A stretch of 36,070 nucleotides of DNA from Jimgerdemannia flammicorona (GCA_003990765.1 RBNJ01000230.1:1-36070); one strand, 5' to 3'. Counted from the first letter of the stretch, positions 1-36,070 are shown. A program made the numbers and translations. Notes: a model not told the origin generated them from the sequence alone.

Positions 1-67
1 TTTTTTTAGTCTCTTGGACTTCGTCTTTATTACCAGTCTATGAATAAGTATACAATATAACCACCCA

Positions 68-3724: not shown

Positions 3725-3754
3725 AATGAAATACAGTTTGTTCTCGATCAATCC

Positions 3755-5785: not shown

Positions 5786-5858
5786 GATACTAGTAGCTTT
5801 TCTCTAGAAACTGTGTCGAAAGTGTTGCCAAAGGGTTGTGTAACCTGAATGTTGGGTC

Positions 5859-9831: not shown

Positions 9832-9846
9832 TTCTTATTAGTATAT
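9832..9846 (+). repeat. LINE2 TSD, left copy (right copy 15602-15616)
   Basis: ttcttattagtatat vs ttcttattgatatat; both derive from TTCTTATTGGTATAT (F-L-L-V-Y) by one G>A each. Confidence 0.8.
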
Positions 9847-9959
9847 ATATATATTTTATATAGTCACTCAGACTTTCATTTATTACTACTCAATCTATAA
9901 ATAATATATATTTACCTACAGCCTCTCAGCCAATGTCCCTTGGATCTCTCTCCCTACTC

Positions 9960-12900
9960 TCCATCTCTCTCTGCTAAAGGACAACTCAACCACCCACCAC
10001 CTAAACCCTCCTGCCACTCTTCTTGCAAATACATTTACCAGATTCTGATGATCCCCTCCACTCAATCCCCACCCTCTTTACCAACCATTCAAAATGTCAA
10101 GTATCAACCATTCCCAACATACTATCCTAACTCCAACTGCAACTCACTGGCCCCTCTCAAAGACATGAAGCCAATGACTGATCAGCCTTACTCAAATTAC
10201 TAGAGCCCAACCCAAGGTCAGCTATTCATTTCTGATTCTACTCACTAATCTTTGCCAGAGGTCCCTCCATCTCTCTCCTTCTCTCCCCACCAGGGGCCAC
10301 AATCTCAGTCTACTAGTAATACTATACCAAAACTCCTCCAAAACTTCACACATCCCTAGCCAATGTTCAGGCATTTGTACCACTTCCCCCTCCTGGCCAA
10401 TGTCCATACATTTCTTATACTCAAATGTGCCATCTACCACCAAGTATTCTGACTGATAGTTCAGTATCATATTCCACCTTAGGAACCTCCACTATACCAT
10501 CTAGAACTTGGGGGGAAGTCACTACATCATCTGCTTGCTCCAATACCAAATACTATTTCAGTCACACTCCTTGCCAATCTCCACCCTTTGCTATGCTCTA
10601 GGCCACACATCTTCCCTGAGCCCCCACATATATTTTATCTCATTGCTAAGCTGAAAATCCTCCACCAATGAACCTTCCAGCAGTAGCTGGTCCTATCTCT
10701 ACATCTGTGGTCTCCAGTTCTCCTCCCTCTTATCATCTCTCTACCAAAGTCTAATTCTTCTTGCACTATCCACCACTATCTACCAAAAGTCTTTATAATG
10801 CATCTTCCTGCTCTCATCCATGGCCACCATTACAAGCAGATCACCAGTCACTCCACAAGGAGAATACTAGACTTCCCACATAAGTGGTATCCACTCTTGA
10901 CCTCTTAACTTGTTTGCTCTTTTCAGCCACCAAGCTCTCAGACAATATAGGTACTTGGTAAAGTCTATCAAGCCTAGCCCACCTCTGTCAACAGGCAGAG
11001 TCAGAACCTCCCAGCCTATCTGACTTTGCTGCCTGACCCAAATCCATGATCTTACTATCTTCAGAAGTTGCCTGACCACCTATACCAGAAAGTCTAGATG
11101 ATACCTCACATATCACAGCTTTGGCAGCCAATACACATTCAGCACTATCACCCTTCTTGCTAAGGATATATACTGACCACCTCATCTTAAGAGAATATTT
11201 CCCCATACTAGTAGCCACTGTTCCTACCATATATGGAGTAGAAGGGACCCATATACCAAAAAGTATATCCTCAAGTACCAGACCAGTTCTCCTACTGGAA
11301 CCACTGTTTCAATTATGTCACTACCAACTATTCTACTATCAAGCACCAGAGTCTCATATTTGTACTAGTTAAGTTGAGCACCTGAGCCTCTCTCATACTA
11401 TTTTACAGTCCTTCTTAATTTCTCCACATCTTCTAATGAACTCAGTCTAACTACCATATTATCTACAAAAGCCCCAACCTTCTAGTTAATCCCCAGAATA
11501 TCCAAACCTCCAATTTGATACCAGATTCTATCCAATAGAGGCTCTAAGAAAAGGGCATATAGGATGGGTAACAGAGGATCCCCTTGTAGCACCCCATGAC
11601 CTAGTAGAAAAGTCACACCCCTGTGCCCATTCACTACTAATACTGCTTGACTGTTCTCCAATAGACTGATTAATGACCTCCTGAACTCTGGGGGAACTCC
11701 TACATACTTTAGCACTCTCTCCAGCCAGACTCTCCTCACCCTGTCATACACCTTCTCCTGATCCAGAAACACTAACCAGCCATCAACCCCAGCCATCTGA
11801 GTCCCTTCAATCACTCCATGGACTCAGGCAGTTCTATCTCAGATCAACTGACCACTAACAAATCCCCTCTGCTCCACTCTTAGTACCTACTGAGTGATCT
11901 TCTGCAGCCTAGTCATCAAGATCTTTGTCACTAGCTTATAGTCCATATTCAGGAGCATGATTAGTTTCCAGTTCTTCCAATCTTCTCTCCTCTCCTTGTT
12001 CTTATAGAGTAAAGAGACCAGCTCTAGGTGCTGGCCCCCCATCCAAGTTCCAGATTGAAAGACCTTATCACTCATTGCTATCATCTCCTCCAATATCCCC
12101 TCCACCCCCACTATCTTCTTCCAAAAATCCCAGGAAAGCTCATCCTCTCCTAGAGCTATCCCCATACTTATTGAAGATAAGACCTTGTGAACTTCCTCCC
12201 CCTGCACTGGATCTCCTAGTATCTCCAAGTCCAGTGCTAGGTCTGAATCCAATCTTCCAACTGCTGTTCAATGTTCAGGGTATCCTCACCTCTCTCTTCA
12301 TCACTCTATAAATTCCTCTAGCAAGTTCTCAGCAATCCCAAAATCATAAGAGTCCTTGCCACCATCTCTCTATCCTCATCCAAAATACTATTCTACTGCT
12401 GTCTAGTTCTCTGAGCTTGGAGCAACTATAAAAGAAATCTAGTAGGTCTCTCCTCCTCCTCCAATCTCTGCCACTGCAACCTTGCTACTATCCCCTTCAG
12501 CTGAACCTCTTTCTCCATTCATAGCACTTTCTTTAGATCATCAACTTCTTTTTGTATCTGCAGAATTTGCCAGTTGGCTGCCCTCCAATCATTCAGTGAC
12601 CCCATTTACCTCTCCAGAAGCACTGCTAACCTCTGTGAAGCTCATTATACTTACTGCCTCTGCTGAGCACTTCTTCCTTTCCCTGCCTCTCTCTAGTATC
12701 TCTGAGCACTTGACTTCAGCTGCCACTAGTGATCCCTATTCACTAACCCCTGCTCCTGTCAACTACCAATTATCTCAATAACCTCCATGCTACCTATAAG
12801 GAACCATCCTCCAACAAAGAAGAATTCAGTTGTCAATATCCAGGCCTATCTCCATATCTCCCAAATCTTTCACTCCCTATCAGACCCCAGTGATCCAACC

Positions 12901-13569
12901 ATGGGCACTAAACCACCTCTAGTATGTCCCAGATACCTACTCTCCAGCACTCTGCCATTAATACTCAGTTGATCCTGGAGCCCAGCCCTGCCACCCAGTG
13001 AGTATAAATTTAGCAATCCACCCAAAACTGTTGCCCCAAGTCAACCAAGAAGCTCAACCTCTCAATCTCTATCCAGTCACCAACTTGCCACTTCTGCCTC
13101 TCATTCCTCTCCTACCATCAGTTATATTTATCCCATTATCATATACTATATTGAAATCATCCCCCAGGCAATCAATCCCCACCTTACCCATAACACCAGC
13201 CTCTCTCAAGTCTCTGATCCAATCTACATATTCCCCCCTCTCAGCTGAGCAATAATACAATCCAATAGTCAAAGAGTTTCACCCAGGCCTCTTCTATACT
13301 CCCCACACCAACCTACTCCCCCAATGTCCAATATCTCCAATGTCTCCCATCTCCTTTTGAACCAGAATAGCCACCTGCCTAGTCCATATAGCTGCCTGAC
13401 CCCATTTCCTAGTCCAGTCCTATAAGTCTATATCTGCCTCATATTGTACATTCTGTAGTAGGAAGAGATCTGCATCCAGACCCTTCAACCAGCCAAAGAT
13501 ATTCCTTCACCATGTCACTTCCCTCAACCTATTTATATTTAAAGAAAAGATTCTAGTTGTACTATTTAT
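9960..13569 (-). pseudogene. LINE2 ORF2 (APE-RT-CCHC), many stops
   Basis: Decayed start (M)NSTTRIFSLN at 13569; DDFN, FLDQEKVYD, QGDPLLP, GAFVDNMV, PEHWLGMCEV. The 3' boundary is approximate. Confidence 0.88.
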
Positions 13570-13599
13570 ATTGAATAATATTTGATATAGAGATCTCAG

Positions 13600-15430
13600 T
13601 CTAGAATTCCATACTCCTCCTATTTCCATCTAGATCCAAGTACTACTCCACCTCCAACTCATCTTCCATTACAGCCTGAGCATCTAATATCTCTAAGATT
13701 TCTTGATACTCTGCCTCATCTACTATCTCAAATTCTGCCCAATAGTCCATACATACCACCCTCCACTTCTCTAATCCCTTTCTTGAACCCTACAAGTATA
13801 CTGCTTAATTATTTGCAATCTCTCAAAGTTTCTTCTCTCTCTGACCATCTACTTGATATTCAACTAACTCCAGGAGCACTACTAGGATCTCATTCCTAAC
13901 CTTTCTTGGCACCTCCTCTTTCTGGAGAATTTCCTCCCAGTGCCTATTGCTCATGATCCAGAAGTCCTCTCTCCTCAGCTTCTCAGCTACCACCCCCTCC
14001 AGAGTCTTCTATAGCCACTTCTCCTCATCTACTGCCTCTGCAACACCCTGGGCAACCCCTTTGACCTCCACCACAGGGTCCACTAAGGTGCTCCTCCTCA
14101 CTGATTCATCTCACTCCTCCTCTAGTACATCCTATAATTCCTTCTTACCACTTGCCCCATAAGAGACATCATACTGAGGGTGTACTTCCTCACTCATTTT
14201 GGCATTCTCCATTATGCTGCCCTGTCTCTCCTCACCTAAACTCTCTTGGGCCACACCTTGGACCATCCTGCTCTCTCCAGCCCAGGCACTCTCCCTCAAT
14301 CTGGCTCTACCTTCTTTGGCACTGCTGTCTGCTACACCTTCTCCCAATTTTGTCAGAAGCTCCTTCTGGATATGCCTCTCCTACATCTTCTCCTAGGCCA
14401 CCCATTCTATCCTGATCTTCTTATCATCCACAATCTCCACTACTATCTTCACCTCATACTTCTTCCAAGCCAATCTTCTCCTCTCTATGGCTCCTGCCAG
14501 ATCCTTAAGAGTCTCCAGCAAGTCCTCCTCTTCCTCCAGCATCCCTTTTACCTATGAGACTTTGCATTCCACCAGTCCCCACTTAAGAGTCACTGGTCAG
14601 TCTCTTGTCTTCCCCATATTCTTCTTTTCAGCTAGCCTCACCTGGACATCTATGTATTCTGTCTGGAGTTCAGTATCCCAAGACTCTGAACCCAATATCG
14701 ATAATCTCTCCATACTCCTTGACCATCTCCACAATCAACTTCCTGGCCCTCTCTCTCAACACTGTAGGAAGATTCAACACCATCAACTACACCACTCAGG
14801 GGTCCCAGTACATATATCTTACCATAGGAACTACTACTCCATCTACTTCTACCCCCTTCTCCACAGTCTCTAGCATCAATACCTCTGCCTCAAATTCAAT
14901 CTCAACTTCTTCTTTCCCCTTCAAGAACTTCACCAAAGCTGCCCCCTTCACCTCCTGTACCACCAGCCCCAAAATCATTCTTGTAGTCACTGCTAAGCCT
15001 CAAAAGTACAATGTGATGATGAATTCTGACCTCAAGATTTTGAGTAATGGTGCTGACACCATACTAGTCATACTATCTACCAGGTCCCCAGGCCTCATGC
15101 CTTCTCTCTATTCTGATCTGCCAATAACCATCACATCTGGATTTTTTTTCCAGATCCTCAGTCATAGCTCTATCAGCAGTCACATCACTAGTCCCTACTC
15201 CCCCCCCCTCCCTACTACCTGACTCTCCTATGGAGGCCCCTTTCTGTCTCTCAGCTGAAGCTGTTGACATCTTCCCCAGTCTCAACCAACTATCCAGACC
15301 AGATACTATTCTCCCCATCCTGACCTTGTTGGCAAAGATTGCCCTCCCCTCTCCTTGTTGTCTCAATTCACCCCTCCCTCCACCACCAGTGCCATGACCA
15401 ACCATAGGAGGCTCCAGCATCTCCAAACTG
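13600..15430 (-). pseudogene. LINE2 ORF1, decayed
   Basis: Fragments 14796-14990 and 15073-15426 align to LINE1 ORF1. Boundaries are approximate. Confidence 0.8.
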
Positions 15431-15621
15431 TCTCTTTGCCTCCTTCCAACTTGCTGCTAGCTGAAGACACTGCTGCCCCCCTGACTGATATGCTCACTAG
15501 TATATTCATTGCTGTCTATGTTAATAGTCTCCTTTTATTAAAAACATTGTAGAAAGTATTGTCTGAGTCTTGTGTCACCTTAATATTACTGGTGAAAGGT
15601 ATTCTTATTGATATATCTTGA

Positions 15622-17678
15622 TATAAGAGGATTACTTATTAGAGTAACCATTATATAGTTCTGGAAGGGGTTTTCTGGAAGTTCTGGATATTCTAAAAGA
15701 CCATTTCCTTTAGGTTAAGATCAATTTCATATGGAGTATATCCTCTATACTTATTGATTTTAAGATTGGATTGATGTCTCAACCAAAGTCCTTATTCAGA
15801 CTAGTTCTGGATGTTTAGGATTTTCTGTATTTCAGGAAGTTCAAGAAACTAAGACCAGCTTAGTTGAATTGGCATGTTACTACAGACAATACCTAATTAG
15901 GAAATTTCATAATGGGGTTAGGAGTGGGACCTAACAGGGAGTGGATTTACTTAAGAGTGGTTTATAGATTATTAAATAGGTTTATTCACTATTTATGATA
16001 TTGCTATACTAGGAGTAGTTATATAAAGAGATATTGGGAAAGTGTTCAGGAGTTATATTCAGATTGTTCTGTATATTCAAGTCTGAGATTCTGAGGTCTA
16101 GAGAAGGGGGTATTTATACTAATAGGAGGCTATCTGGACTATGCTAATATGAATGTAGCACTTAGTGCCTTACTGAGTTGGAATGTAGTCACATAGTACA
16201 AGTGTGATCTGATATATCAAGAGATCATTTAACTGCTGAGTCAGTTCATAGTCATATCATATGTATAAGGCTAATCTAACTATACTAATAACTGTTAAGC
16301 TATCTATAGATTTAGATACTGTCTGAGTAGTTTTTGATGACATTACTATCAATGATATCATCTCTGAAGAAGTAGTTATCTAGAAAGAGTTGTTCTCAGA
16401 TTACTTCTCTCTATTTGCTCAAGTAATAATATATTGGAACCTCATCACTATTCCACAGGATAGCATCATCTACCTCATATACTGAGTATAGAGTTGGTGA
16501 GTAAAGTAGGAGTGCATTGTCTTTGCTTTCATCAGATTTACTATCTGTATATCTTCTATAAGTTATAGCAATATATATTACTGGGTTGTAGTAAGCTAGC
16601 AGCTGTTGTTCATGTCACTTGTACTCAGATGGTAGGGTTGTTAGTTCAATCTTAAGGGTTGTCTGGAGGTATAGATTGTATTCTTTAGTCTCTTCATTAT
16701 AGTTGAAGTAATTGGGAGTAAATGCAGATTGGTACTCATGCTAGTAGTCATCATTTCAATAGGTCTTGTAGGTAGTTATGAACTATTATAAGTTCATTGG
16801 CAATATCAGTGGAGTGATCAGAATTGGTAGAGATTCTTGACTAGAGATCATATTGATATCAGAGAGATCATTATCTTCTGCTTTATCATCATCAAATCAG
16901 ATTATATCATAGACATCCTTCATGGTATATCCAACTTGATTATAAAAAAAAATGTGGTTGTTGGGATACAGGAAGGTTCTGTCTATAGTTTGAATATACT
17001 TGATATACTTGTGGTTGAGTTCTTGTACCATATCATCAATTTGGCTATAGGACAGAGTGGTAATCATTTCAGTGGTAGTAACTTGGAGGTAGGAAATAAA
17101 GGTGCTATACTTATAGAAGAGTTCTCAGTGTTTGCAGGTAATGAGTTTCTGGTGTTGGGACATCTGAGTAATATCTGTATCATGGTAGTGTTTGACCATA
17201 TCTTCCAGGAGATATGTATCTGATCTGGTAGTAGCTTGAGATTTATCTGATTCAGTGGACTTCATTGAGCATGTTTAGGGCATTCTATTGGGCTTCCATA
17301 AAGTAGAGAGGTGCAAGACTATGAATATTCATGAGGGGTAGAGAGAGTGTGGCTTGGTTGACAATGGTATTCCAAATATTAGTGCAGATGTAATTGTAGA
17401 TTTCAGTGATCATATTGTATATATATTCAAAAGTTAGGATTGTTTATTTGGTTTGTTGTAGTTCTCTATTTCAATATGTCTAAATGCTTAGTATATATAT
17501 ATTTGGTCCTGATTGATAAGATTTTGTTTATATAAATCTTATATTCTATGACTTTGAGTTGACTCAGCTTTGTGCACTATGACTTCAGTTTGACTCAGCT
17601 TCATGATCTTGTATGTGATTTCTGGATTTGTTCAGAGGTTGCATATGATTTCTGTAGCTTGAAGGTTGTGTACTTACA
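15622..17678 (-). repeat. B 3' LTR (about 2057 bp)
   Basis: Colinear with 30024-32073. Ends T(G>A)TAAG...CTTACA; - strand TATA box near 16111. Confidence 0.93.
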
Positions 17679-17693
17679 ACTATCCCCTTTTTA
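17679..17693 (-). other. polypurine tract of B
   Basis: The - strand reads TAAAAAGGGGATAGT directly before the LTR TGTAAG. Confidence 0.85.
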
Positions 17694-18154
17694 GCTTTTA
17701 ACATCCTCATTGAGGTTTTCTAATTTAATCTAGTGTTGTTATACTGTTTGGATGATCAAAAGTCTAGTAATATTCATTTTTCTCAGAAAGTAGCATGCTT
17801 GTAGGACAGTTGCCTAACACATTGGATTCATACATTAAAGAGTCATATATTTAATACCATGTACCAGAAGTGATTCTGATATCATTCACTGCTGGAGAAT
17901 TTTCTCTAAGGAATCTTCTTAAATATCTATACCTCATTTTCCATCAGTGGTATAGGGAGAATAGGCTGGCTTTCAGTTTTGTTGTTTTTCTAGAGGGTCA
18001 GTATTCTTTTGTCTTGACTTACTAAGTTTTTGATTTTATTCATAATAGTTATAAGGGTACTTAATATTCAGGAGGAGTAATATATAGTATAGGACTAATT
18101 AGTATTAGAGTATTTAGGTTTCAGTTGTTCAAAGAATCATATTCTTGAACTAGG

Positions 18155-18290
18155 TCAGTAGCATTCTGGAGATTGGTTTTGGATTCCTATATTACATCAT
18201 GGATTAGATAACCTTTCTATTTGACAAGGTATTCTGGATAGTTCTTGTGGCTGTATTTATTGAGGATTTGTTCAACTTCATATTCTTCTT
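18155..18290 (-). pseudogene. chromodomain at the integrase C-terminus of B
   Basis: EEYEVEQILNK...EYLVK*KGY...DVI*ESKTNLQNA matches the YEVE.I...YLVKWKGY...TWEP..NL consensus. Confidence 0.9.
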
Positions 18291-20460
18291 GGTCATTAAT
18301 AATGATAGATGCAGGTGGTTTTATAGTTTGGTTTGAGAATAGCTTGTTATAATTTTCATTGTATCACTTGAGATATTGGACATTGAAGACTGGGTAAATC
18401 TTAATGGTATCTGATAGTACCAATTTGTAGGAAGTTGGAGAGACTTGTGTGATGACTTCGAATGATCCAATAAATTTGCTCTTCAGCTTTGTAGATGGTT
18501 AGTACTTGAAGTTATCAACTTAGTATCCTCAGATATCTAGTAGGACTTTTTCTCTGATATCAAATATTTCTCCTTATCAGTACTGATTAATATACTGTGA
18601 CTATTGTTCTTGAGCTTGGGATAAATTCTCAATTATGATCTGACTTAGATTGTGTATTCAGAGTAGGAATTCTTCAATAGCTTTGACAGTGGAGGATTCA
18701 TCAGTGGTTCAGATAAGTGTCAGAGAGGTGTTTGGGTTTTGTTCTATATTGGTGAAGAACAGAGTCATTCCAAGAGAGGCTTGCTTGCTGTTGTTATAGG
18801 CAAACTTGACTGTAGTAAGGTATTCATGCCAATTATCTTGTCTGTAGGAAATATAGTTCCTTAGTATTTATTCCAGAGTTTAGTTCATTATTTTAGTTTA
18901 GCTATCAGTTTCAGAGTAAAAGGCTGTAGATAGTATAAGTTTCATTCCAAGGTGTGAATGGAGGGTTTTTCAAAAGTGGCTGGTGAATTTTGGATCATAG
19001 TCACTAATAATGATCTTGGGAAGACCATGATAGTTGAAGATATTGTCAAACAAGAGTATATCAATTTTGGATACTGTTGCAGTGGTAGTAGTAGGTATAA
19101 AATAGGCTTATTTGCTAAGATAGTCTATGAAAACAACAATTGCATCTTTCTTATTCTTGGTTTGGGGTAGTTATACAATGAAGTCCATAGAGATTTATTT
19201 CCAATTAGCAGATAGTACTGAGATAGGGTAAAGTAGGCCAGGTTTTGCTAGTGTTGAGAACTTATTACATTGGTAAGTATTATAGGAAGTGATGTAGATC
19301 TTTAGCTGATCTGTCATATGGGGCCAATAGAAGTTTTGGGAAATAACTTTATAGTATTTGTCAAATTCTAAATGTCTGGCTGTAGGGGTATTATGACATT
19401 CAAATAGGATGGTTCTTGATTGTTTGGAACATACAATCTGTCCTTATAGTAGATAGTATTGTTCTTTAGTTAGTATTGATGATATTGAGTATATTTGTCA
19501 ATATCATCACTGCTCAGGATTTTGTAGAGTACTTGAGCTTCTTTATCATCAATATATGCTGTGATGATTTATTCTATGATAGAGTTGGTAACCAAGGTGA
19601 GAGTTTGGATAACCTCTTTGATTGATAGTCTAGAGATTGTATCAGCAATAATATTTTCCTTACTAGGGTAATACTGGATTTCATAGTTAAAGTTAGTGAG
19701 GACTTTCATCCATCTGGCTTGCTTTTGGAAAAGGGTAGCCTGGGTCTTGATATTGACTAATGACTTGTGATCTATCAATATAGTGAAGTATGCTCCTTCA
19801 AGATAGAGTTGCTATTTAATCAGGGTGTCTATGATGGCTAACATTTCCTTCTCATGGGTTATATACATAGTTGATTTTGGCATCATGAGTAATAGGCCAC
19901 AGGGTGTCCTTCTTGTATGAGCACTGCTCCAAGAGCTAGGTCAGAGGTATCAGTAGTAACTTTATAAGGTAGAGCAGGGTTTGCTGCTTGAAGTACTGGG
20001 GTAGTTATTAAGGTATCTTTTAGTGCTTGAAAGGCTGTATCTTGTTTAGGTCTCCAATTTACAAGATTATTGAAGTCTCTTTCTTACTTTATAGTTTAAG
20101 GCTGTTCTTCTTTTTTACTATGCTTGGTCATTTGGGTGAGAGCAGTAGTGATCTTGGAGAAGTTTGTAACAAATCACCAGTAATAATTTACTAGTTCCAG
20201 GAATGACTAGAGGTATTTTAGCTTCTTGGGTCTGGGTCAATCCTTGATTGCAGAGATTTTGCTGGGGTCTACTTTGATTCCATTTAGCATGACAATTTAT
20301 CTAAGGAATTGAATTTCCTTCAGGAGGAATTCACATTTGCTGAGTTTTGTAAAGAGTTTGTTTTCTTGGAGTTTCAGTAGTACTAGTTCAAGGTGTTTAA
20401 GATATTCCTCCAGGGTTTTGCTGAAGACCAGGATGTCATCAATATAGACAACAACAAATT
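18291..20460 (-). pseudogene. B pol, 3' part: RT from VYIDD, RNase H, integrase
   Basis: FVVVYIDDILVFS (20421-20458), KLSKCEF, RNase H VTTDTSDLALGAVL (about 19920-19965), integrase HNTPTARH, DPKFTSHF, STAFYSETD. Confidence 0.9.
20446..20460 (+). repeat. LINE3 TSD, left copy (right copy 26282-26296)
   Basis: agacaacaacaaatt vs agacaataacaaatt (14/15). Confidence 0.9.
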
Positions 20461-20656
20461 GGACTTCTTTCCCTCAAACCATACCAGTCAAAAGGTCTGG
20501 GTGAAAATTAGATCTCTATAGTATAGGAGAAGAGAGGCCATCAGTATCCCAAGATTGGGTGTGCTAGAAGTGGTGAGAGAAGAGGAGTCTAATGGTGTCA
20601 AGTTGCTCCAATCTCAACTACAGTTTTTAAGAATTCAAGGTTTCCATTATTTCATG

Positions 20657-20870
20657 GGCCAGATGGTGTGATGCAGACTCTGGGAGCCACTAGCAATAAT
20701 TCAAGAAGATGAAGAGTCTTTCTTTCAGTAATGTGGCTGGCTTTGTAGTGAGCATCTAACTCACTAGCATGCTCTGGTGGACTAGGAGATGTGGGTTAGG
20801 CCCTTAGACTTTCTTTCACTTAGGGGAGACTCTCACTGCATTTTCAAGACATAGAGGTATATCAGGAGAT
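20657..20870 (+). repeat. 214-bp direct duplication of target flanking the PLE (second copy 25310-25523)
   Basis: Ungapped match with 10 differences by my count, all transitions. Confidence 0.93.
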
Positions 20871-21325
20871 GAGGAGGAAGAAGGCCCAGCGAGAGCCAAG
20901 AGAGCGAACCCAGAGCCAGTGTCAAAGTGAATGGAAGACATGTGGAAAGGTGTATATAAGGGAGATGAACAAAGAACATAACCAAATTTGCATCAGCCAT
21001 TTATTGCCATGTAAAAATATGGTCCTTATATACAAAATATGACATCCCAAAAGGAAGGATGCACCACAACTTGGGGCAAACTGAATTAGGAACCACATGA
21101 CCACCAGAGATAGGTGGAGATAAAGGGAGAGCCAATCCCAGTTGCAGGATAAAAATCACAAACAAACACAAATAAAACAAATCCAAATCGAGATTAAAAA
21201 ACATCCGCAGATCCTGGAGGGGTGAGTATGAGCAAGGGGTGAGGCTGAAATGGAGCGAGCCATAGTGAGCCTGAGCGAAGCAAGGGGCCAAAGGTAGCAG
21301 AGGAGAGCAGAGTAAGGCCGAGACC

Positions 21326-23437
21326 CTAGAGTGAGCGCGAGACCCCAGAGGGGGCAAGGATGTTTTTTAATCCTCTCCAGCAGAGCTGAAGGCACCAGAA
21401 GGTGATGAAAACGCAAAACGAGAGTGATGGATTAAAGAAGAAATAGAAGGAAGACGTGAATGAGCAATCAGAGGGTGTCAAGAGAGATGAAAGTCCATAG
21501 CATGAAAGAGAAGAGTGCAGGACAGTATCAGGGCATTGAGCAACATCAAATGGTATGACAAGAATCAGGGGTGGGAAAGAAGAGGGGATATAGAGAGGGT
21601 AAGGGGGGAGGGAGGGAAGAGAGGGGGGGTAAAGAGGAGAGAGAAGGGAAGAGCAAACAACAGACCATTCAACAGAAGCAAGCAGATTGCGAATGATAGA
21701 AATAGAGTAGGTACGATGATGGACCACAAAGTTGCCAAGAACCTGAACAGCAGACACCCAATCAGAATGATGGGAGCAGCATAGTACAAGATGATGAGCC
21801 TCACCATAAATATATTCAAGAAGAGTGCAATGAGGATGATTGGACAAGAAGTCAGGGAACTGTTAGGAACAGGGAAAACAGGAATAAACAACAGTTTGGA
21901 AAGGAGAAAGAGAAATGGAAAGGTCCAAAAAGGGGATACTAGTCATACCATACACCCAGATAATAGAATGGTGGGGAGGGTAGATGCCCAGGAACATACT
22001 AGGGATATCAATATCAGCAACAGTGAAGACAATAAAGTCATCAATGTATCGGCAAAAGAAGATATCCCCAGCCCAGAATGCAATGGAAAGAGGTGAAGTA
22101 ATATCATGTAACACATACAATTCATGGGCCAGGCCAACGAGGTTGGCAAGGGTGGGGGCACAATTCATTCCCATGGCAATATCAGAAGTCTGGTGAAAGG
22201 AGCCAAGGGCTGACTCAAAATAATTAGAGCCACAGACAAGGAGCATAAGCTCAACAATGGAAGCCAGTGAAACTGGGGAATCCAAAGGAAAAACAATAGA
22301 ACCCAAGAAGCAAAGGCAATCATTGATCTTATCAAAATGAATAGCAGTATAAAAGGAGGAGAAGTCACCAGAGGCCAAATGGGAAAAATGGTGAATAGGC
22401 ACAATGGTGGAGCAGAGAAGGGCAAGCTCCTGAGTATCATGAAGAATAGTATACTCAGGCCCAAGACAGTGTTGTAAGAGAGCCATCCAGGAGAGAAAGA
22501 AGTGGGATAACCACTTTGAAATCTCAGTGGTAGGAGAACTGTAAGTAGCTGTAATGGGACGCCAAGCCAAAATAGGCTTGTGAACTTTGGGAAGAGTATA
22601 GAAAACTGGAAGAGAGATATCTAGAGAGGACAAAGAGTCCTGAAAGAAGTTAAAAATGGGGTTTGCGAATAGAGAGTCTGAATGCGATCTGGCATGAGCC
22701 AGAGAAACCCAAAGAAGAGTGAGAATCTCATCCAATTCAAGAGTACTAGGCTCATAAGCTGTGGCTCGAAGGAGGGCAGAAAGGCCATCAAGGTAGAGTG
22801 ACTTTGGAATAAGTGTAAAACCCTGATTCTTATTAGTGACTGTGAGCAAATGCATAGGCAATTGCTTGACCAATTTAAGTGTGGTATGTACAGCACAGTC
22901 TGAAACCAAACAAGAGTGAGCATGTCCAGGAATGGACAGTGAGCAGGCCATGTCGAGGAATATGCAGTGTGAAGAGACATTGGAAGGGAGGACCCAATTG
23001 CTAGGAACAAAATAGCAAGAGGGCATCTCACCACGATCTTGAAAGAAAATGGCAAGGTCAAGAGTATGACAAAAACATATGAGATGAGCCAGATCGGTGA
23101 AAGTGAATTGTGAGGGAGTCACAGGAAAAATGAAGTGAGGACCCAAGGATAAGGCAAAGACTTGAAGGGGAGAAAGAGGGCAGTCAGCCAGAGAAAAAGG
23201 AGGAGACAAAAGAGCTCCAAGAGAAGAGTAAACCTGAAAGTTCAGGACAAGCAACTGGGAAAGGCAAAGGGGGGACAATATGAGGAACCACTCAGGGCAC
23301 ACCAGAAGTGATGATGGAATCCGAGAAGGGACAGGGACACTGGGGGAGAACCACACCAAGGGGAAGTTTAAGAGCAGGAGGCCTTCCCCTTCCCTCTGAC
23401 TTTTTTTGAAGGTAGTGAGCCTGATGAATGGGAGCAC
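21326..23437 (-). pseudogene. PLE reverse transcriptase (one in-frame TAA at 21863-21865)
   Basis: TNKNQG, FYTLPKVHK, WRPI, GDFSSFYT, IAMGMNCAPTLANL, RYIDD, PFLDL, then in the same frame the thumb region SNHP...IYGEAH...CS. No GIY-YIG follows. Confidence 0.9.
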
Positions 23438-24564
23438 ACCCTGTCAGAGTGCCAGACCTTGCAGCCACAGGCTTTCATGCAGCCCTTACATTCGGGGGTA
23501 TGGGTGGAGGAGGCAGAGGAGGAACCAGCAGAGGAGGTCAAAGGCAAGCGAGTAGCCGAAGGGACAGTAGTATGAGGAACACTACCATGAGGACAGATGG
23601 ACTTGGCTGGGTGCCAGTAGGCATGGTAGAGGCAACCAGAGCAGACAGCATAAGGCCAGGCCCTGACAGGGCGAGAACCAAGTTGGTGGCCATGTTTGGG
23701 GGCTGGGGGAATGGAGGAGGAAGCCTTGGTGGGGGAGAGAGACCGGAAAGAGGCCGACGAAGCTTGATTGAGCTTGGCAGGGGTCTTGGTGGGGGTCTTG
23801 GAGGGGGCCTTGGTAGCAGCAGCAGTGAAGGAACAAACCTCAGCATGAGCAGCAGTGCGAGCTTCAGCATGAATAGCCTCAGAGACCAAAACCTCAGGGG
23901 AGGCAGGCAAGGGAGCAGTGGCAGTGGTGCGAGCAGCAGCAGCAGCACATGATGTCTCCTACTCGTGAAGGCGAGCAACAAAAGAGGTGCTGGTAAGGAG
24001 AAAACGACACACAGCATCGATGTCGGTAGTGACAGAAGGAACATCTTAGATGGTGAAGTCACAGAAAGGGGCAGCATCTGAAAGATGAGAGGAGGCGAAG
24101 ACCATGAAGGCAGCACAGGTATGGTGGAAGGAGGCAGAAGCGGTGGTAGTGGAAGTGGCAGCAGTGGCAGCACAAACCTCTTCAGAGAGGGCTTGGCAGT
24201 GGGCCTCAGGAAGAACGGAGTAGCGGATGGCGAGCAGAGTGACAATGTCGATGTCACAGTGGAGATGAGCCTCCTTGGCAGAGAGGGCAAGAACTGACTG
24301 GAACTGGGAGAGGAGTGGATGACCAGAGAGACAAAGGTCCAAGAGGAGGGAAAGAATGGTGGACAAGATGTAGGTCTCGAATGAGACAGTGGTGGGGGTG
24401 AAGGCAGGGGGAGGAGGAGGAAGAGCCTCATCCATGAGCTCATCGATGAGGACAGAGGCCCTGAGGGCAGGTGGTACAGCAGAGGAGGAAAAAGGTCCAG
24501 CAGGAGCCAAGGGAGCGAATCCAGAGCCAGTGTCAAAGCGAATAGAAGACATGTGGAAAGGCAT
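23368..24564 (-). pseudogene. putative PLE ORF1 with Cys/His clusters
   Basis: Track ORFs 24046-24564 and 23368-23910 share a frame. CSGC...HPAKSIC and CKGC...HSDRVC motifs; differences between repeat copies include third-position changes in the MSSIRFDTG frame. Confidence 0.55.
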
Positions 24565-26282
24565 ATATAAGGGGGATGAATAAAGAATGTAACCGAATTT
24601 GCATCAGCCATTTATTGCCATGTAAAAACATGGTCCTTATATATAAAATATGATATCCCAAAAGGGAGGACATGCCATAACTCAGGGTGAACTGAATTAG
24701 GAACCACATGACTGCCGGAGATAGGCAGAGATAAAGGGGGAGCCAATCCCAGTTGTAGGATAAAAATCACAAACAAACACAAACAAAACAAATCCAAATC
24801 AAGATTAAAAAACATCCACAGACCCCGGAGGGGTGAGCATGAGCAAGGGGTGAGGCTGAAACAGAGTGAGCCATAGTGAGCCCAAGCGAAGCGAGGGGCC
24901 GAAGGCAGCAGAGGGAAGCAGAGTAAGGCCAAGACCCCGGAGCAAGTGCAAGACCCTGGAGGGGGCAAAGATGTTTTTTAATCTCGATTTGGATTTGTTT
25001 TGTTTGTGTTTGTTTGTGATTTTTATCCTGCAACTGGGATTGGCTCCCCCTTTATCTCCACCTATCTCCGGCAGTCATGTGGTTCCTAATTTGGTTTGCC
25101 CTGAGTTGTGGCACATCCTCCCTTTTGAGATGTCATATTTTGTATATAAGGACCACATTTTTACGTGGCAATAAATAGCTGATGTATATTCAGTTACATT
25201 CTTTGTTTGTCCCCCTTATACATGCCTTTCTACATGTCTTCCATTCGCTTTGACACTGGCTCTGGGTTCGCTCCCTTAGCTCCCACTGGGCCTTCTTCCT
25301 CCCCTCCTTGGCCAGATGGTGTGATGCAGACTCTGGGAGCCACTGGCAACAATTCAAGAAGATGAAGAGTCTTTCTTTCAGTAATGTGGCTGGCTTTATG
25401 GTGAGCATCTAACTCACTAGTATGCTCTGGTGGACTAGGGGATGTGGGTTAGGCCCTTAGACTTTCTTTCACTTAGAGGAGACTCTCACTGCATCTTCAA
25501 GGCATAGAGGTATATTAGGAGATTTTGGAAGGTGCTCAGAGGATTTTGGAAGGTGCAGCTGATGATTGGCCAAGGTGGATGAGGTGATTTCAATACATGG
25601 TGTGATAGTGACTAGTGATTGGTAGATATCAGATGGTGCAATTCAAGATGGCAGTAACAATTAGGCCAGGTAATTGGTCAGTAATAGTGTGATGATCAGC
25701 AGGAGGATCAGTAGGGTGACTACTTCACTACTTTGGGGAGGGGAGAGCCAGTAGGTCAGGTGCATGTTGCAGAGGTACTTAAGGTACTGGGGTTGCATCC
25801 AGTGGCCCTTCTGGGGCAAGGTCAGATATGATGGTAGTATCACTTGAGGTACTAGTGTCACAAGCCAGATGGTGACTTCTGACTCAGAGCTGGGCAGAGA
25901 GAGTCCATTTGTTAAGTATGTAGGTTGGCACTGAGCAGCCAAGGTAGGGTGGAGTAACTTATTATTGGGGAAATCTCAGGCCTACACACCACTTCTTTTT
26001 GCTTTGCAATTATATATATTATTTGTATGAGAGAACTGGTTGTGGCCTTGGTGGGGGCTTTGTTATCAGTAAGGAGGGAGAGGTGAGAGTGACTCAGAGC
26101 AGAGAGAACCAGGTATCAGCCACCTTGGTCTTGCCAAGGTTAGGTATCAGGTCATTTAAGGCTACTCTGTTCAGGGCCTGACCCCACTTATTTTCTTGTC
26201 AGGAAATCCAGGGGATGTTTTCCTGCTGTTCACTTTATACTATATTCTGAATAAATAAGTATGGAAAAAAAAAAAAAAAAAA

Positions 26283-27597: not shown

Positions 27598-28010
27598 TGA
27601 TAAGCCAAATCCTTTAGATCCTTGGATGGTGGGCAGTAGTTCAGAGACTTCTTTGACTATCAGAGTTGATTCAATTTTCTTAAATAGGATCTAGACAATA
27701 TAAAAACCAATAGAGATCTTGAAGGGTGTCCAACTATGGTTTTAGATGAGGACAATTATTTCTCTTCATCAATGACTTCTTCTTCTACTGAGAGTTCTTT
27801 CAGTGCTAGGCTGCTGTAGCAATATATTCTTCCAATATATCCTTCAGGGATTTGGATGCTGATCTCTATATAGACTTGCTTGACTTCTCAGTTAGAAACT
27901 GTAGCTTCTTCAGCTGTATATAGGTCATAACCAGCTGCTTTTTGACTTCCCTTGGTTGGAGCCTTAGCAGTTGGCCTTAACTTGACAAAGTCTACTGTCT
28001 TGGTGGTCAG
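27598..28010 (-). pseudogene. dUTPase domain of Gypsy B
   Basis: FVKLRPTAKAPTKGSQKAAGYDLY (I), IPEGYIGRIYCYSSLA (II), EVID (III), TIQGSKGFGLS (V). Confidence 0.92.
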
Positions 28011-30009: not shown

Positions 30010-30020
30010 TACTGCTATCA
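30010..30020 (-). other. PBS-like site of B
   Basis: TGATAGCAGTA (probably decayed TGGTAGC..) 3 nt after the 5' LTR end. The primer was not identified. Confidence 0.5.
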
Positions 30021-30023
30021 AGT

Positions 30024-32073
30024 TGTAAGAGGGTTACTTATTAGGGTAACTGTTACATAGTTCTGGAAGGGTTTTTCTGGAAGTTCTGAATATTCTGAAA
30101 GACTTTTTTCTTTAAGTCAAGATCAATTTTGTATAGAGTACATCCTCTATCTTTATTGATTTCAAGATTGGATTAACATCTCAACCAAAGTCCTTATTTG
30201 AACTAGTTCTAGATATTCAGGATTTTCTGTATTTCAGGAAGTTCAAGAAACTAAGACCAGCTTAGTTGAATCAGCATATCACTGCAGATAATATCCAATT
30301 AGAAAATTTCATAATGGGGTTAGGAGTGAGACCTAATGTGGAGTGGATTTACTTAAGAGTGGTTTATAGATTATTAAATAAATTTATTCACTATTTATGA
30401 TATTGCTATACTAGAAGTAGTTGTGTAAAGAGATATTAGAGAAGTGTTCAAAAGTTGTATTTAGATTGTTCTGTATGTTCAAGCCTAAGATTCTGAGGTC
30501 TGAGAGAGGGGGTATTTATACTAATAGGAGGCTATCTGAACTATGCTAAATATAGATATAGCACTTAGTGCCTTACTGAGTTAGAATATAGTTATGTAGT
30601 ATGAGTGTGATCTGATATATCAAGAGATCATCTGACTACTAAGTTAGTTCACAGTTACATCATATAAAGTTAATATAACTATACTAATAACTGCTAAGCT
30701 ATCTATAGATTTAAATGCTGTCTGGGTATTCTTCAATGATATTACCATTGATGATATCATCTCTGAAAAAGTAGTCATCTAGAAAGAGTTGTTCTCAGAT
30801 TACTTCTCCCTGTTCACTCAAGTAATAATATATTGGGACCTTGTCACTATTCCACAGAATAGCATCATCTATCTCATATTCTGAGTATGGAGTTGGTGAG
30901 TAAAGTAGGAGTACATCATCTTCACTTTCATTGGATTCACTGTCTGCATACCTTCTATAAGTTATAGCACTATATGTTGCTGGGCTATAGTAAGCTGGCA
31001 ACTGTTGTTCATGTCACTTATACTCAGGTGGTAGGGTTATTAGTTTGATCTTGAGGGTTGTCTGGAGATATAGATTGTATTCTCTGGTCTCTTTATTATA
31101 GTTGAAGTAATCAAGAGTGAATATAGATTGATACTTATACCAGTAGTCATTATCTCAATAGGTCTCATAGGTAGTTATGAACTGTGTAAGTTCATTGGCA
31201 ATATCAGTGGAGTGATCAGGGTTGGTAGGGATCCTTGGCTAGAGGTCATATCAGCATCAGAGGGATTGTTATCTTCTGCTTCATTATTGTTAAATTAGAT
31301 TATATTGTAGACATCCTTTATGGTATATCCAACTTGGGGCATTTGTAGGATATGGTCATTAGGATGTAGGAAGGTTCTGTCTGTAGTTTGAATATACTTG
31401 ATATACTTGTAGTTGAGTTCTTGTATCATATTGTTGATTTGGCCATAGGACAGGGTGGCAACCATTTTGATAGTAGTGACTTGGAGGCAGAGAATAAAGG
31501 TGCTGTACTCATAGAAGAGTTCTTAGTATTTGCAGATAATGAGTTTCTGGTGTTGGGACATCTGGATAATATCCATATCATGGTGGTGTTTGACCATATC
31601 TTTCAGGAGGTATCCAATCTAGTAGTAGCTTGAGATTTATCTGATTTAGTAGGCTTTGTTGAGTATGTTCAGAGTATTCTATTGGGCTTTTATGAAGTAG
31701 AGAGGTGCAAGACTATGGATATTCATGAGGGGCAGAGGGAGTGTGGCTCAGTTGACAATGGCATTCCAAATATCAGTTCAGATGCAGTTGTAGATTTCAG
31801 TGGTCATGTTTATATATATATTCAAGAGTTGAAGTTGTTTGTTTGGTTTGTTGTGGTTCTCTGTTTCAATATGTCTAAATGCTTGGTATATATATATTCA
31901 GTCCTGATTGGTAAGATTCCATTTGTATAAATCTTATATTTTATAACTTTGAGTTGACTCAGCTTTATATGCTATGACTTCAGTTTGACTCAGCTTTATA
32001 ATATTGCATGTGATTTCCAGATTTGTTCAGAGGTTACATGTGATTTTGGTGGCTTGAAGGTTGTACACTTATA
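30024..32073 (-). repeat. B 5' LTR (about 2050 bp)
   Basis: TGTAAG...CTTA(C>T)A; colinear with 15622-17678. Confidence 0.93.
30711..31807 (-). pseudogene. LTR-encoded accessory ORF(s) of B, unknown function (second copy about 16310-17413)
   Basis: ATG at 31807 (MTTEIYNCI...) opens about 210 codons whose stops are all C>T-derivable; at least one is a sense codon (CAG) in the other LTR. A second Tyr/acidic frame runs about 31230-30711. Confidence 0.65.
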
Positions 32074-33799
32074 CTTGATGATATCCTGATCTCTAGTACA
32101 ACTAAGGAAGAATATCTTAAGTATATCTAAGTAGTCTGAGAGATCCTATAAAAATACAAGTTTTATATAAAGCTCAAGAAGTGTGAATTCTTTAAAGAAC
32201 AAGTCAAATATCTTGACCACATTATCTCTGAACAAGGAATTCAAATAGACCTATATAAGATAAAAGTAATTCAAGAATAGCATATTTTATCAAATCTCAC
32301 AGAACTCTGATTCTTTCTTGGTCTAGCTAACTATTATCATTACTTTGTCAGAAACTTCTCTAATATTACTAAGTCACTAACTAATCTCATGAGGAAGACC
32401 CCTCACTCTGATCACTACATATCCTATATCTAGAACTTCTTTTATCAACAAGCCTTCTAAGAACTCAAGAACTATCTAATTTATACTCTAGTTCTATATA
32501 ATACAGATCCAAGTCTGAAATTCACCATCACTACTAATGTGTCAAATTTTACTATTAGAGCAGTCCTATTACAAGATGATAGCAAAGGACACTGTTTTAT
32601 TATCTTTGAGTCTCACAAGTTGACCCCAGCTAAACAAAAGCTAGCTACTTATAAGAAGGAGTTACTGGTGATAATATATATACTAGACCATTGATAATAC
32701 TATCTAGAAGATATTGAGTTTGATATCATTATTGACTATCAATCTCTCAAGTACATTAACACCCAATCTACCCTATTATATCTATAAGCCAAGTAGAGCC
32801 TCAAGCTTCAAACCTTCTATCCAATAATCATCTACAAGTTTGGCAAAACACTTGTAGTACCAAATGCCTTATTCAGACATTCAGATCTCACTATAATTAT
32901 GCAAGTCACTTTGGTATCTAAATTTCTAGACCAAATCAGACAAACTTATAATAAAGATACTATTACTATTAGAGTTTTCTCCAATAAGCTCAAGGATACA
33001 TATATCATTGAGGACAACCTGATCTACCATCAAGACTAAGTCTATTTATCTGATAATATAAACTTATACTATAAGATATTATGAGAACATCATGACTCCC
33101 CTCTTGTCAGTTATCTTGAAATTGAGAAAACTGTCAAGAATATCTAGTATTACTACTATTGGCTGAGTATGGTCAAGAAAATCAAGAACTATATTGCTAG
33201 CTATAATATCTGTCAGTACAATAAGTCTACCAATCAAGTATCAGCTAGTTTGCTACAATTACTGTCAATTTTAATCAAGAAATTTGAGTAAGTTATAATA
33301 GACTTTATAACTCAACTACTACAAACTCAATCTGATGCTGATGCTATTATTATATTCATTGACTGCCTGACCAAGACTATGGTTACTGAACCAACCACTA
33401 TCAATACTATTATACCTGAGATTGTAAGAATTTTCTGTAAGTCCATCTTCTATTACTATGATCTACTATAAGTAATTATCATCAACTATGACCCTAAGTT
33501 CACCAGTCACTTCTGGCAAACTCTCTTCAAGACTCTGGAAATCCAATTAGCTATATCTACTGCCTTTCACTTACAAACTGATAGACAAACTGAGTGCATG
33601 AACAGAACTCTAGAATAAATACTTAGAAACTATATTTCTTATAAATAAGATAATTGAGACCATTACTTAACTTATATAGAATTTGTATATAATAATGTCA
33701 TTCAATTATCTACTGGTCTTTTTCCTTTTTGAGTACTCTATAGTCAAGATTCTAAGATCTCTACAAGTCTAGTTTCTTTCAAGAAGAGCAGTCAAATAC
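32074..33799 (+). mobile_element. Gypsy element A, 3' segment (RT from LDDIL, RNase H, integrase)
   Basis: LDDILISST, KLKKCEFF, FLGLANYY, FTITTNVS..IRAVL, EHHDSPL, DFIT, DPKFTSHFW, STAFHLQTDRQTE. Confidence 0.9.
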
Positions 33800-34573
33800 T
33801 GTAATAACTCTGATTTTTACCCCTCTCTTATCCTTTGGATAATTAGGGAAATAAGATATTACTTAGGAGCTTAGCACACAAGTGAACCAAGAAGCCTTCA
33901 GTATGAGAAAGTACTCACTTGAAAGTAGTTGTAGTAGCAATATCCTTCAGGTAACTATAGTTACAAAAGACTTGTTCTTTACTATGCACAGACTGAATTT
34001 GCCTTAGAATTCAGATTTAATAGGAGTTTACTTAAGTCTTTATAATTTATATACTAGTCTCAACTCTGGCAGAAGTTAGCTAGGCTTTTGGAGTTTAGTC
34101 TGAAATACTAGAGTCACTTAGTTGTTATTACTAAGACTCAGGAGAATATATATATATGGAGGGAGACTTGATTCTTGTATCAAGGACTGAACTAAAACTC
34201 TCTTTATTTTGGATGGAAACTGAGAGATATTTATACAAGTTGGTTTATAATTTCTAACTAAGTATAAGTGCCTAATTTGGTAACTATAGATGAGATTTGT
34301 AATCATGACCTTTGTTAGGTGATTTATGATCAGGAATACTTTGTAATCAGGACCTCTGTTGTTAGGCAATAATCAATTACTATAGCACTTTTACTGTAGT
34401 ACCAAATTACTAAGGATAAGCTAGATATCATTTATTGTATTTTATTTATATCATTTGTTATATTTGTCATTTATATATCATATATCACTTAATGGTAATA
34501 TCATTACTAGGTTATGTGATTACTTATTGTATGTTGTATCTTATCTATTTATTTGTTCACTCATTCTATTACA
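33800..34573 (-). repeat. 3' LTR of LTR element D (774 bp), inserted in the integrase region of A
   Basis: TGTAATA...TATTACA perfect 7-bp inverted ends; - strand PPT TTTTAAGAGGGGAAAGGA at 34574-34591. Confidence 0.8.
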
Positions 34574-36070
34574 TCCTTTCCCCTCTTAAAAGTTAACATT
34601 CTTATTTATTCAAAAATTGAGAACTAGAGGAGAGGAGGGTAGAGAATCCTTCTCCTCATCTAACTTGATGTTGTTGATATTCCCACCAGTGGTTAGAGGA
34701 GTAGTTGCTAATGGCTCAATGTCTAGAATAGAGAAGTCAATGAGATCTGCAAATGATTCTTAAACTGATATAGGTAGTGAGATAGGAGTTCTCTATCTAA
34801 TACAGTTGGAGTCATCTAAGTAGAGCTCTTACTCCTCATACTAAGAATATTCATTTAGATAAGTGATCCTTTAAAGAGATCAGAAGGATCTTGGAGACAT
34901 TGGTCTGAGTTATTATTCAGGAGGGGGCTTCAGTGGGGTTTACAATCAGTGGACTTGAGAGTAATCCAGGAGTTAGCTTCTTGGACAATCTTGATCTCCA
35001 GTTCATCAACCTCAAGGAAGGAGAGATTCTGGAAGTCCTTCAGTTATATATAGTTAAGATTGGATATTGTAAAAGGTATATGACACATGATCTGATAGAT
35101 CTTCTTAGCTAGTCTTTGCTCATACCTATCCAGGTTAGTCCAGTCTGAGACCAGGTCAATAGATAGGCCTTTTGTATGTTGAAGAAGTTAGTGACCAATT
35201 TTATATTTATAACAGATTTCTAGATAGCTAGTAGCAAGGTAGGTCCTTTCTATAACTTTATAGTAGTTGAGGACATAGTGTCCTAGATCTTGGCTAGTGA
35301 GGTTAAGGGCCTCAGAGTGACAGTTCCTTTCTTAGATAGTAATCTGGATATATCCAAAGAGGTAGTCAATCTGGCTTGAGAGAGGCTGGCTATAGCAGGC
35401 TATTTGATAGTAGATAGCAGGTATTCTTGTATTGTCTTTTCTTTAGAAAGAGGAGAGAGGAATGGGGGTTGGAGCATATTTCTGTCTTGAGCATTTATAC
35501 TTGTTTGCCTATCTAGTGTAACTTAATTTCAATCACATTCCTAGTAGAATGTGTGACCTGTTGCTATAAGCAGAGCATGTGCTGATCATATGAGAAAATA
35601 CTGATTTCAAAGATATCACCATATTACAGTTGTGGTTACACAGGGTTGACAGATCTTGGTCTTCATTTTTTTTTATTTTATTGATGTATTTATGAGGACT
35701 AGCCATTCTTATCTATAGTGAGGGCTCTTATTATTATAGCTGGAGATTCAAACCTCTTGGAAATTGTATTTCTTATAATTCAAAACAATTTCTAATAACA
35801 ATATCTATTGTGTGAATAGACTTAAGATTGGTTCTAACATTGTTGACTTTCTTGAGTTCTATATAAAGTATCCATCATTCTTTAACAGAGATGATACAGA
35901 TAGTATGAACAGAGTTATTCAAATATATTTTACTATATCTTGCTGAGTTAGGTCAGAAGAGTTCTTCACTCAAATATTCTCTTATTGGTTAATTATAGTA
36001 TTTTTTTTTCTTCTATAATATTTAGTATTGTATATTCTAAATAAATATATGGTATCTTCTTGTTTTTTTT
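34574..36070 (-). mobile_element. internal 3' region of element D with a decayed accessory ORF (core about 34975-35440)
   Basis: Lies upstream of the PPT. Long frame with few C>T-type stops: YKYKIGH*LL...EQRLAKKIYQIM...ISNL...KDFQNLSFLEVDEL. Confidence 0.6.

Follow-up and report, generated by a model that had tools for sequence, protein, structure and literature searches.

Sequence Evidence for an Orphan Acidic Protein Gene Within the 2-kb Long Terminal Repeats of a Chromovirus-Type Retrotransposon in Jimgerdemannia flammicorona

Introduction

Can the long terminal repeat (LTR) of a retrotransposon hold a protein-coding gene of its own, and is such a gene shared between unrelated elements? 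A few retroviruses are known to carry accessory genes within their LTRs. Both questions are raised by a stretch of 36,070 nt from Jimgerdemannia flammicorona (GCA_003990765.1 RBNJ01000230.1:1-36070), hereafter termed the window, which is made up of decayed retroelements nested in one another. A first-pass annotation of this DNA described an accessory open reading frame (ORF) inside the 2-kb LTR of one of these elements, element B, and a related frame at the env position of a second one, element D, and suggested that the two represent one protein family. The analysis presented here points to a modest but real finding, namely an orphan gene for an acidic protein that lies within the 2-kb LTR of an element of chromovirus type with a dUTPase. 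The earlier proposal stands insofar as the frame in B corresponds to a real gene and the frame assigned to D is coding-like; the alignment that was to unite them in one family and the env position of the second frame are lost.

A Reading Frame Within the LTRs of Element B

Element B is a decayed LTR retrotransposon of the Ty3/gypsy chromovirus type, encoded on the minus strand. Direct-repeat and self-BLAST scans recover its LTRs as a repeat pair of 2.06 kb (15614-17676 and 30016-32071) with 85.7% identity over 2060 nt. The LTRs, the sites flanking them and the two copies of the ORF are located as follows:

30024..32073, minus strand: 5' LTR of element B (2050 nt; sense start TATAAG, from TGTAAG; sense end CTCTTACA)
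15622..17678, minus strand: 3' LTR of element B (2057 nt), with the polypurine tract (PPT) AAAAAGGGGATAG directly before it
30023 downward, minus strand: primer-binding site (PBS)-like ACTTGATAGCAGTAG, directly after the 5' LTR (candidate, by eye)
32074..32078 and 15617-15621: 5-bp target-site duplication (TSD) of element B, CTTGA on the plus strand and TCAAG in sense (inspection of the termini)
31807->30711, minus strand: LTR-borne ORF, 5' LTR copy (ATG 31807-31805, TAA 30713-30711)
17413->16312, minus strand: LTR-borne ORF, 3' LTR copy (12 in-frame stops, 4-nt insertion near 17210)

The sense ends of the LTR are of the TG..CA type (TGTAAG..CTCTTACA), each end being mutated in one of the copies, and the PBS-like sequence TTGATAGCAGTAG that adjoins the 5' LTR is a candidate assigned by eye. 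Because the TSD, the PPT and the PBS-like site all touch the repeat ends, the whole 2050/2057 nt correspond to U3-R-U5.

Both copies of the ORF have to be read through extensive mutational damage. The two LTR copies differ by 299 substitutions, 271 of which are transitions, and CpG has been lost from the older elements of the window (~8001-36070 with the exception of element C), where most 2-kb bins contain 0 and the total amounts to 2. The combination of CpG loss and transitions looks like hypermutation of the methylation or repeat-induced point mutation (RIP) type with clear age layers. The frames of the window are therefore riddled with stops derived from CGA, CAA/CAG and TGG codons, and in-frame stops were treated as X throughout. 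In the 5' LTR copy, the ORF contains 11 such stops and a 1-nt deletion near 31190.

The evidence for a gene comes from intact relatives of this frame. The search query P0004, a single-frame reading of the 3' LTR copy (16315-17259) with nine stops, matches the intact 247-residue ORF P0005 with an E-value (E) of 1e-81 in a word-index search and of 3.5e-82 in a phmmer scan of 1.84e9 representatives. The same phmmer scan returned P0006, a sequence of 128 residues with an intact start (E 4.9e-21). P0005 aligns from M1 to I247 with the end of the B frame (142/251 identities, two 2-residue gaps, pairwise E 4e-96), and its stop coincides with the stop of B (..DSI*). At the other end of the frame, P0006 starts with MTTEIYN at the ATG of the 5' LTR copy (31807) and exhibits 72% identity over 128 residues up to the end of its contig, including one stretch with 47/62 identities. 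The first 14 residues of P0005 overlap the last 14 residues of P0006, and the full protein is therefore ~361-365 residues long. Conversely, tblastn with P0005 and P0006 matches both LTR copies of B and nothing else within the window (E 3e-76 and 1e-56, respectively, for the 5' LTR copy).

Because these two intact relatives share the start and the stop, both of which are preserved at 57-76% identity, the B ORF represents a real protein-coding family; opposite the stops of B, the relatives carry R, Q or W. Furthermore, a log-odds model of codon usage, with pol segments as its sole training set, assigns 3/3 pieces of the ORF to the correct frame (+0.145, +0.212 and +0.072). When this model was checked on leave-out segments, the true frame scored highest in six out of six. 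Judged by these sequence comparisons, the frame is a genuine gene relic of ~365 codons, in sense orientation and complete in each LTR, and the third ORF that the first-pass annotation had seen in the 2-kb LTR of B is upheld.

The family is small in the collections searched. P0005 and P0006 lie on contigs of 998 and 1180 nt, respectively, from ENA and JGI/IMG. A word-index search with the intact P0005 returned only P0005 itself, scans of metagenome contigs with both proteins found no further locus, and a scan of IMG/VR viral contigs with P0005 found nothing. With P0006, the IMG/VR scan pointed to one stretch coding for a relative, without giving a locus; this stretch could be the record of the window itself. 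Two further phmmer matches, P0007 and P0008 (E 4e-05 and 7e-05), are repeat proteins with 25-31% identity over short stretches and were set aside as spurious.

Position of the ORF Within the LTR

The ORF spans positions ~267-1363 of the 2050 nt of the LTR and lies wholly inside it in both copies, beginning 267 nt from the LTR start and ending ~690 nt before the LTR end. Candidate control sites are found on either side:

31955..31992, minus strand: two AAGCTGAGTCAA units (TGAGTCA), 31 nt apart, 150-185 nt upstream of the ATG, in both LTR copies
30513..30521, minus strand: candidate core promoter, GTATAAATA then CCCCCTCTCTCAG, 190 nt past the ORF stop, identical in both copies
30383..30388, minus strand: candidate poly(A) signal AATAAA (GTGAATAAA), 133 nt past the TATA box, in both copies

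Since the conserved TATA box (30521) and AATAAA (30388) lie downstream of the ORF, the latter is probably located in U3, and the positional analogy to retroviral sag and nef that had been drawn for it is reasonable. The motif GTATAAATACCCCC..TCTCTCAG at 30521 is unchanged in both LTR copies and is the sole TATA box preserved in this way. With these sites as landmarks, U3, R and U5 would be arranged in the usual way and measure ~1.55 kb, ~100 nt and ~350 nt, respectively. The 9-mer GTATAAATA occurs four times in the window as opposed to 0.37 expected occurrences, at 7817-7825, 16111-16119, 30513-30521 and 34228-34236, in all cases on the minus strand. At 34236 and in the B LTRs, a pyrimidine run and TCTCTCAG come next, and the 9-mer may represent a shared core-promoter motif.

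Alternatively, the ORF could lie in a transcribed leader with a very long R/U5 and form the first cistron of the genomic RNA, serving particle assembly or RNA handling. An extra ORF1 upstream of gag is present in plant Ogre elements. Such a leader would fit the two TGAGTCA sites, which we take to be of the AP-1/Gcn4 type, and the TATA-like run AATATATATATAC at ~31886, which is likewise kept in both LTR copies; both are found just upstream of the ATG, and this ATG is the first in frame after a stop located 31 codons upstream. However, the far better TATA box (GTATAAATA) and the AATAAA 133 nt further on come after the ORF and are unchanged in both copies, and a length of 1.8 kb would be highly unusual for R or U5. 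In addition, gag starts at least ~900 nt past the LTR and has a long N-terminal region of its own. A leader position is unlikely on these grounds, and a location in U3 is preferred in what follows.

Properties of the Encoded Protein

For the B ORF protein, no Pfam family was matched at E <= 10, and the LTR frames of B are equally without a Pfam match. No relative was found among PDB sequences, and the ESM Atlas offered no usable match beyond the entry of P0005 itself, whose model has a predicted local distance difference test (pLDDT) value of 0.39. Neither a signal peptide nor a transmembrane segment is evident, in line with what had been noted earlier for the part of the frame then read, and no known domain emerged from Pfam or PDB.

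Structure prediction divides the protein into two parts. In AlphaFold2 (AF2), the N-terminal 128 residues consist entirely of helices (pLDDT 51) and the C-terminal 247 residues reach a pLDDT of 29, with 4-5 sequences in the alignment in both cases; the N-terminal ~125 residues are accordingly described here as predicted to be helical. The C-terminal ~240 residues are without a confident fold, have an isoelectric point of 4.05 and are rich in Tyr, Phe and Trp (D+E 18.6%, K+R 4%, Y+F+W 14.6%, no Cys). The last 50 residues of this part combine a net charge of -9 with 13-14 bulky hydrophobic residues. The B ORF protein is an orphan, fast-evolving and acidic.

A protein of this kind might be a passenger whose gene entered the LTR by transduction from the host or a foreign source and has no role for the element, with its environmental relatives being copies of the host gene or of the same LTR. 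LTR elements pick up host sequence, and the protein has neither a feature typical of retroelement proteins nor a family. Nevertheless, no cellular homologue is found among the 1.84e9 representatives, which yield two fragments only, or in word-index searches, and the capture of the ORF into U3 that the first-pass annotation envisaged is not supported, no host homologue having been found in that collection. The codon usage of the ORF matches the pol genes of the element, and the start and stop kept between the relatives likewise speak against a gene without a role. We regard a passenger as quite improbable and continue with a gene that belongs to the element.

Truncation of Element D and the Tail of the Window

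The second frame of the first-pass annotation lies beyond the 5' LTR of B, at the right end of the window, where the following features are recognized:

32074..33798, plus strand: pol fragment of element D (end of the reverse transcriptase (RT), RNase H, integrase zinc finger and core; truncated ~25 residues past the PF..YG motif)
33799..36070, minus strand: tail E (sense end GTTATTACA at 33799; GTATAAATATCTCTCAG at 34236; polypurine run 35999-36012)
34870..35475, minus strand: coding-like relic in the frame ascribed to D (~200 codons, 5 stops)

The similarity between the pol genes of B and D ends at D position 33774. The coding score of D falls to zero by ~33570-33750, whereas that of B runs ~900 nt further through the SH3 domain and the chromodomain; unlike B, D shows no SH3 or chromodomain match. 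From ~33799 onward, the composition shows minus-strand sense polarity. Taken together, the end of the similarity, the drop of the coding score, the missing SH3 and chromodomain and the flip in polarity mean that D is truncated and that the tail is a different sequence, termed E. No LTR of D is identifiable within the window. The frame supposed to occupy the env position of D is thus antisense to D pol, and D itself is cut near 33798 before an SH3 or chromodomain. Two peptides considered as integrase C-terminal motifs, GDLILVS at ~34155 (plus strand) and LPEGY..FQVS at ~33945 (minus strand), were dropped after the coding-score scan.

The relic itself has a frame-specific codon-usage signal (~35500->34870), with a score of +0.139 versus 0.021+-0.022 that is reached by 0/1000 dinucleotide shuffles. 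The frame (P0003) has no homologue among proteins of 161-513 residues, a search made with this frame only, and no frame of tail E has a Pfam match.

What could the tail be? A serious possibility, to which we give somewhat less than an even chance, is that 33799-35997 constitute a 3' LTR belonging to a third element, E, which is encoded on the minus strand and has a U3 ORF of its own that is unrelated to that of B or has diverged beyond recognition. Strand polarity flips where the integrase of D is cut, the sense end ..GTTATTACA adjoins D, and a polypurine run (35999-36012) is located ~2.2 kb upstream, with the coding-like relic lying between the two. Moreover, the overrepresented GTATAAATA together with TCTCTCAG is found 437 nt from the sense end, compared with 505 nt in B. 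Against this stand the lack of a second copy within the window, the lack of any significant likeness to the B LTR around the TATA box, at the ends or at the starts, including comparisons with transitions masked, and an ORF that has neither a homologue in the size range searched nor a Pfam match. If E is an LTR with its own U3 ORF, LTR-borne ORFs would be recurrent in this genome.

The Proposed Likeness Between the B and D Frames

Both peptides quoted in the first-pass annotation are present on the minus strand in the places described, and the question is whether they are related. Smith-Waterman local alignment (SW), scored against shuffled sequences, gives 29 for the two peptides as opposed to 27.4+-5.2 for shuffled ones, and 680/2000 shuffles are as good. 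Across all 36 frame pairs between the B LTR and 33800-35700, z does not exceed 2.34. The ungapped block of 35 residues from the first-pass annotation scores 16 with 6/35 identities when the intact relative is used, and 427/500 shuffles hold an equal block.

The intact relatives allow a more sensitive comparison of the whole frames. BLASTP of P0006 (28-127) against the D frame (57-159) recovers the register that had been proposed, with 20/106 identities (19%) and E 0.23, and SW of the same pair gives z 2.47, with 14/500 shuffles reaching the score. When C>T and G>A changes are forgiven, z falls to -0.42. Comparison of the B ORF family with the D frame by hhalign results in probabilities of 0.3% and 0.8%, both on other segments, and tblastn with P0005 and P0006 finds no match in 33799-36070 at E <= 10. 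At the nucleotide level, blastn and tblastx of the B LTR against the tail yield nothing, and a comparison with transitions masked gives scores of 23-30 versus 1931 for the positive control; the earlier statement that the LTRs of B and D are without nucleotide similarity holds even under this masking.

The likeness between the B and D peptides is at chance level, and the D-frame peptide (34597-35475) is outside the B ORF family. That the two frames are nonetheless one accessory family that switches between U3 in one element and the env position in another, unrelated one is very unlikely: the collinear 106-residue BLASTP alignment, the SW score of P0006, the coding-like character of both frames and the GTATAAATA..TCTCTCAG motif that lies downstream of each on the same strand are outweighed by the shuffling results, the transition-tolerant, hhalign and tblastn comparisons, and the antisense orientation of the frame behind a truncated D. 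The link between the two elements through a shared protein fails and should not be carried forward.

Other Features of the Window

The remainder of element B and the elements surrounding it comprise the following features:

27765..27968, minus strand: dUTPase of element B, between gag and protease (PF00692, E 5.1e-11)
17679..20651, minus strand: 3' part of B pol (RT end, RNase H, integrase zinc finger and core, SH3_Tf2-1, chromodomain)
20652-25523: nested element C, inside the RT of B, which it splits (repeat scans)
1-5600 and ~9860-15500, minus strand: two non-LTR copies resembling long interspersed nuclear elements (LINE-like), 64-65% identity (self-BLAST)

The genes for gag, protease, RT, RNase H and integrase of B stand in gypsy order. 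In gag, visual inspection of the translated frame shows a CCHC knuckle, and RVT_1, RT_RNaseH, Integrase_H2C2 and SH3_Tf2-1 are matched above the Pfam cut-offs. The matches of the protease (RVP_2) and of rve are weak and below these cut-offs, and the Chromo match (E 5.9e-05) scores 23.3 bits versus a cut-off of 25.1 in a mutated copy.

B is inserted into the RT of element D, just before YLDD. This point is a few bases from where the RT resumes after the LINE-like copy at ~9860-15500, so that the two insertions may be no more than ~20 nt apart. That copy is CpG-free and lies between a gypsy fragment (~8000-9850), which may represent the 5' half of D, and the short left piece of D (~15530-15621); the FLL(V/I)Y-LDD motif forms the end of the former (~9850) and the start of the latter (~15530). 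The LINE-like copy at 1-5600 is GC-rich and has kept its CpGs. In general, the nested element C and positions 1-8000 have retained CpG at an observed/expected ratio of 0.16-0.5. The transitions between the two B LTR copies are found mostly at CpA/TpG, and 34 adjacent CA/TG pairs point to lost CpGs.

Element C has an odd geometry. Its direct terminal pairs (20657-20870/25310-25523, 95%, and 20871-21372/24482-24983, 88%) are accompanied by an inverted pair (24478-24816/25308-24970, 90%), and its interior is purine-rich and G-skewed.

Discussion

On balance, we lean towards a reading in which the 2-kb LTRs of element B carry a real orphan gene, placed in U3 by inference, for which a role as transactivator is favoured, and in which the peptide assigned to D is unrelated. 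Several observations weigh against it. Both copies of the ORF are dead, only two relatives were found, and both of these lie on contigs of ~1 kb. In the LTR-wide frame of the 5' copy, 32 of the 41 in-frame stops are shared with the other copy (private stops: 9 and 10), so either hypermutation struck the two copies in parallel or the frame was already closed when B inserted; the comparison of stops between the LTR copies demonstrates no open ancestral frame, and stop density by itself does not single out the ORF frame in the B LTR. As regards control sites, the TGAGTCA heptamer is not enriched in the window (12 observed versus 8.5 expected), and in the 5' copy the TATAAA boxes beside the TGAGTCA sites arose by mutation; the other copy has a different sequence at these places. 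With respect to the protein, low AF2 confidence is weak evidence for disorder at alignments of 4-5 sequences only, and the idea of an activation domain has composition as its sole basis.

As to its role, the protein may activate transcription from the LTR or otherwise promote expression of the element, a tentative proposal that we consider possible rather than probable. The ORF would be read from a start site of its own behind the conserved TGAGTCA pair and the TATA-like run, giving rise to an LTR-only mRNA that ends at the poly(A) site of the LTR; alternatively, it might be read from the 3' end of the element RNA. Binding or dimerisation would then fall to the helical N-terminal part, with the acidic, hydrophobic tail serving as an activation domain, by analogy to foamy-virus Tas or Tax of human T-cell leukaemia virus (HTLV).

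An LTR-borne gene would be copied to both ends of each insertion and would survive as a solo LTR, and it could therefore act in trans on the whole family. Extending this thought, B might represent a chromovirus-type lineage with a self-contained U3 gene whose own control sites lie upstream of it and whose transcript ends at the LTR poly(A) site, such that every LTR, solo LTRs included, could express a fast-evolving acidic regulator (a Tas/Tax-like transactivator or a silencing antagonist), with E as a second LTR bearing an unrelated U3 gene. So far-reaching a scenario is improbable as it stands. The B ORF family stands alone as an orphan, two fragments being all that 1.84e9 representatives yield.

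Comparison With Known Systems

A close positional parallel is the sag gene of mouse mammary tumour virus (MMTV), a retroviral ORF located in the U3 part of the LTR. As in MMTV, the accessory ORF of B is complete inside the LTR, in sense orientation and apparently upstream of the LTR TATA box. In contrast to sag, the B protein is acidic and without a membrane segment, there is no sequence relation (0 Pfam families at E <= 10), and the element that hosts the ORF is an env-less gypsy/chromovirus retrotransposon. Tas/Bel1 of foamy viruses and Tax of HTLV are transactivators of the LTR encoded at the 3' end. The B ORF resembles them in its location at or in the 3' LTR region and in an acidic, hydrophobic C-terminal tail with a composition like that of activation domains; the B protein has no homology to them, no DNA-binding motif was found in it, and the likeness is one of analogy only.

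The additional ORFs known from LTR retrotransposons either precede gag or follow pol ahead of the 3' LTR, and the B ORF differs from them in lying inside the LTR. Such additional ORFs of unknown function beside gag and pol are described, in the parts of the literature consulted, for plants (PMC7264820), bdelloid rotifers (PMC5408684) and the Boty element of Botrytis, where the ORF is termed 'brtn' (bioRxiv 10.1101/2021.04.13.439636). A term search of the plant review for features placed inside an LTR found nothing (PMC7264820). Likewise, full-text literature searches of partial coverage turned up no description of a complete ORF lying within an LTR for env-less gypsy/chromovirus elements.

A similar overall organization is found in dUTPase-bearing fungal chromoviruses, which, according to the portion of the source available, include PosPlaTy3 of Postia placenta, elements of Phanerochaete and Tmt1 of Tuber (PMC2864245). 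The dUTPase of B is thus a hint that its host is a fungus. The same portion describes neither 2-kb LTRs nor an LTR-internal ORF for these elements, and one figure legend contains an 'add. ORF' of unknown function (PMC2864245). As far as that portion goes, element B shares with these chromoviruses a CCHC gag, a dUTPase before the protease, RT, RNase H, integrase and a chromodomain-like end (PMC2864245).

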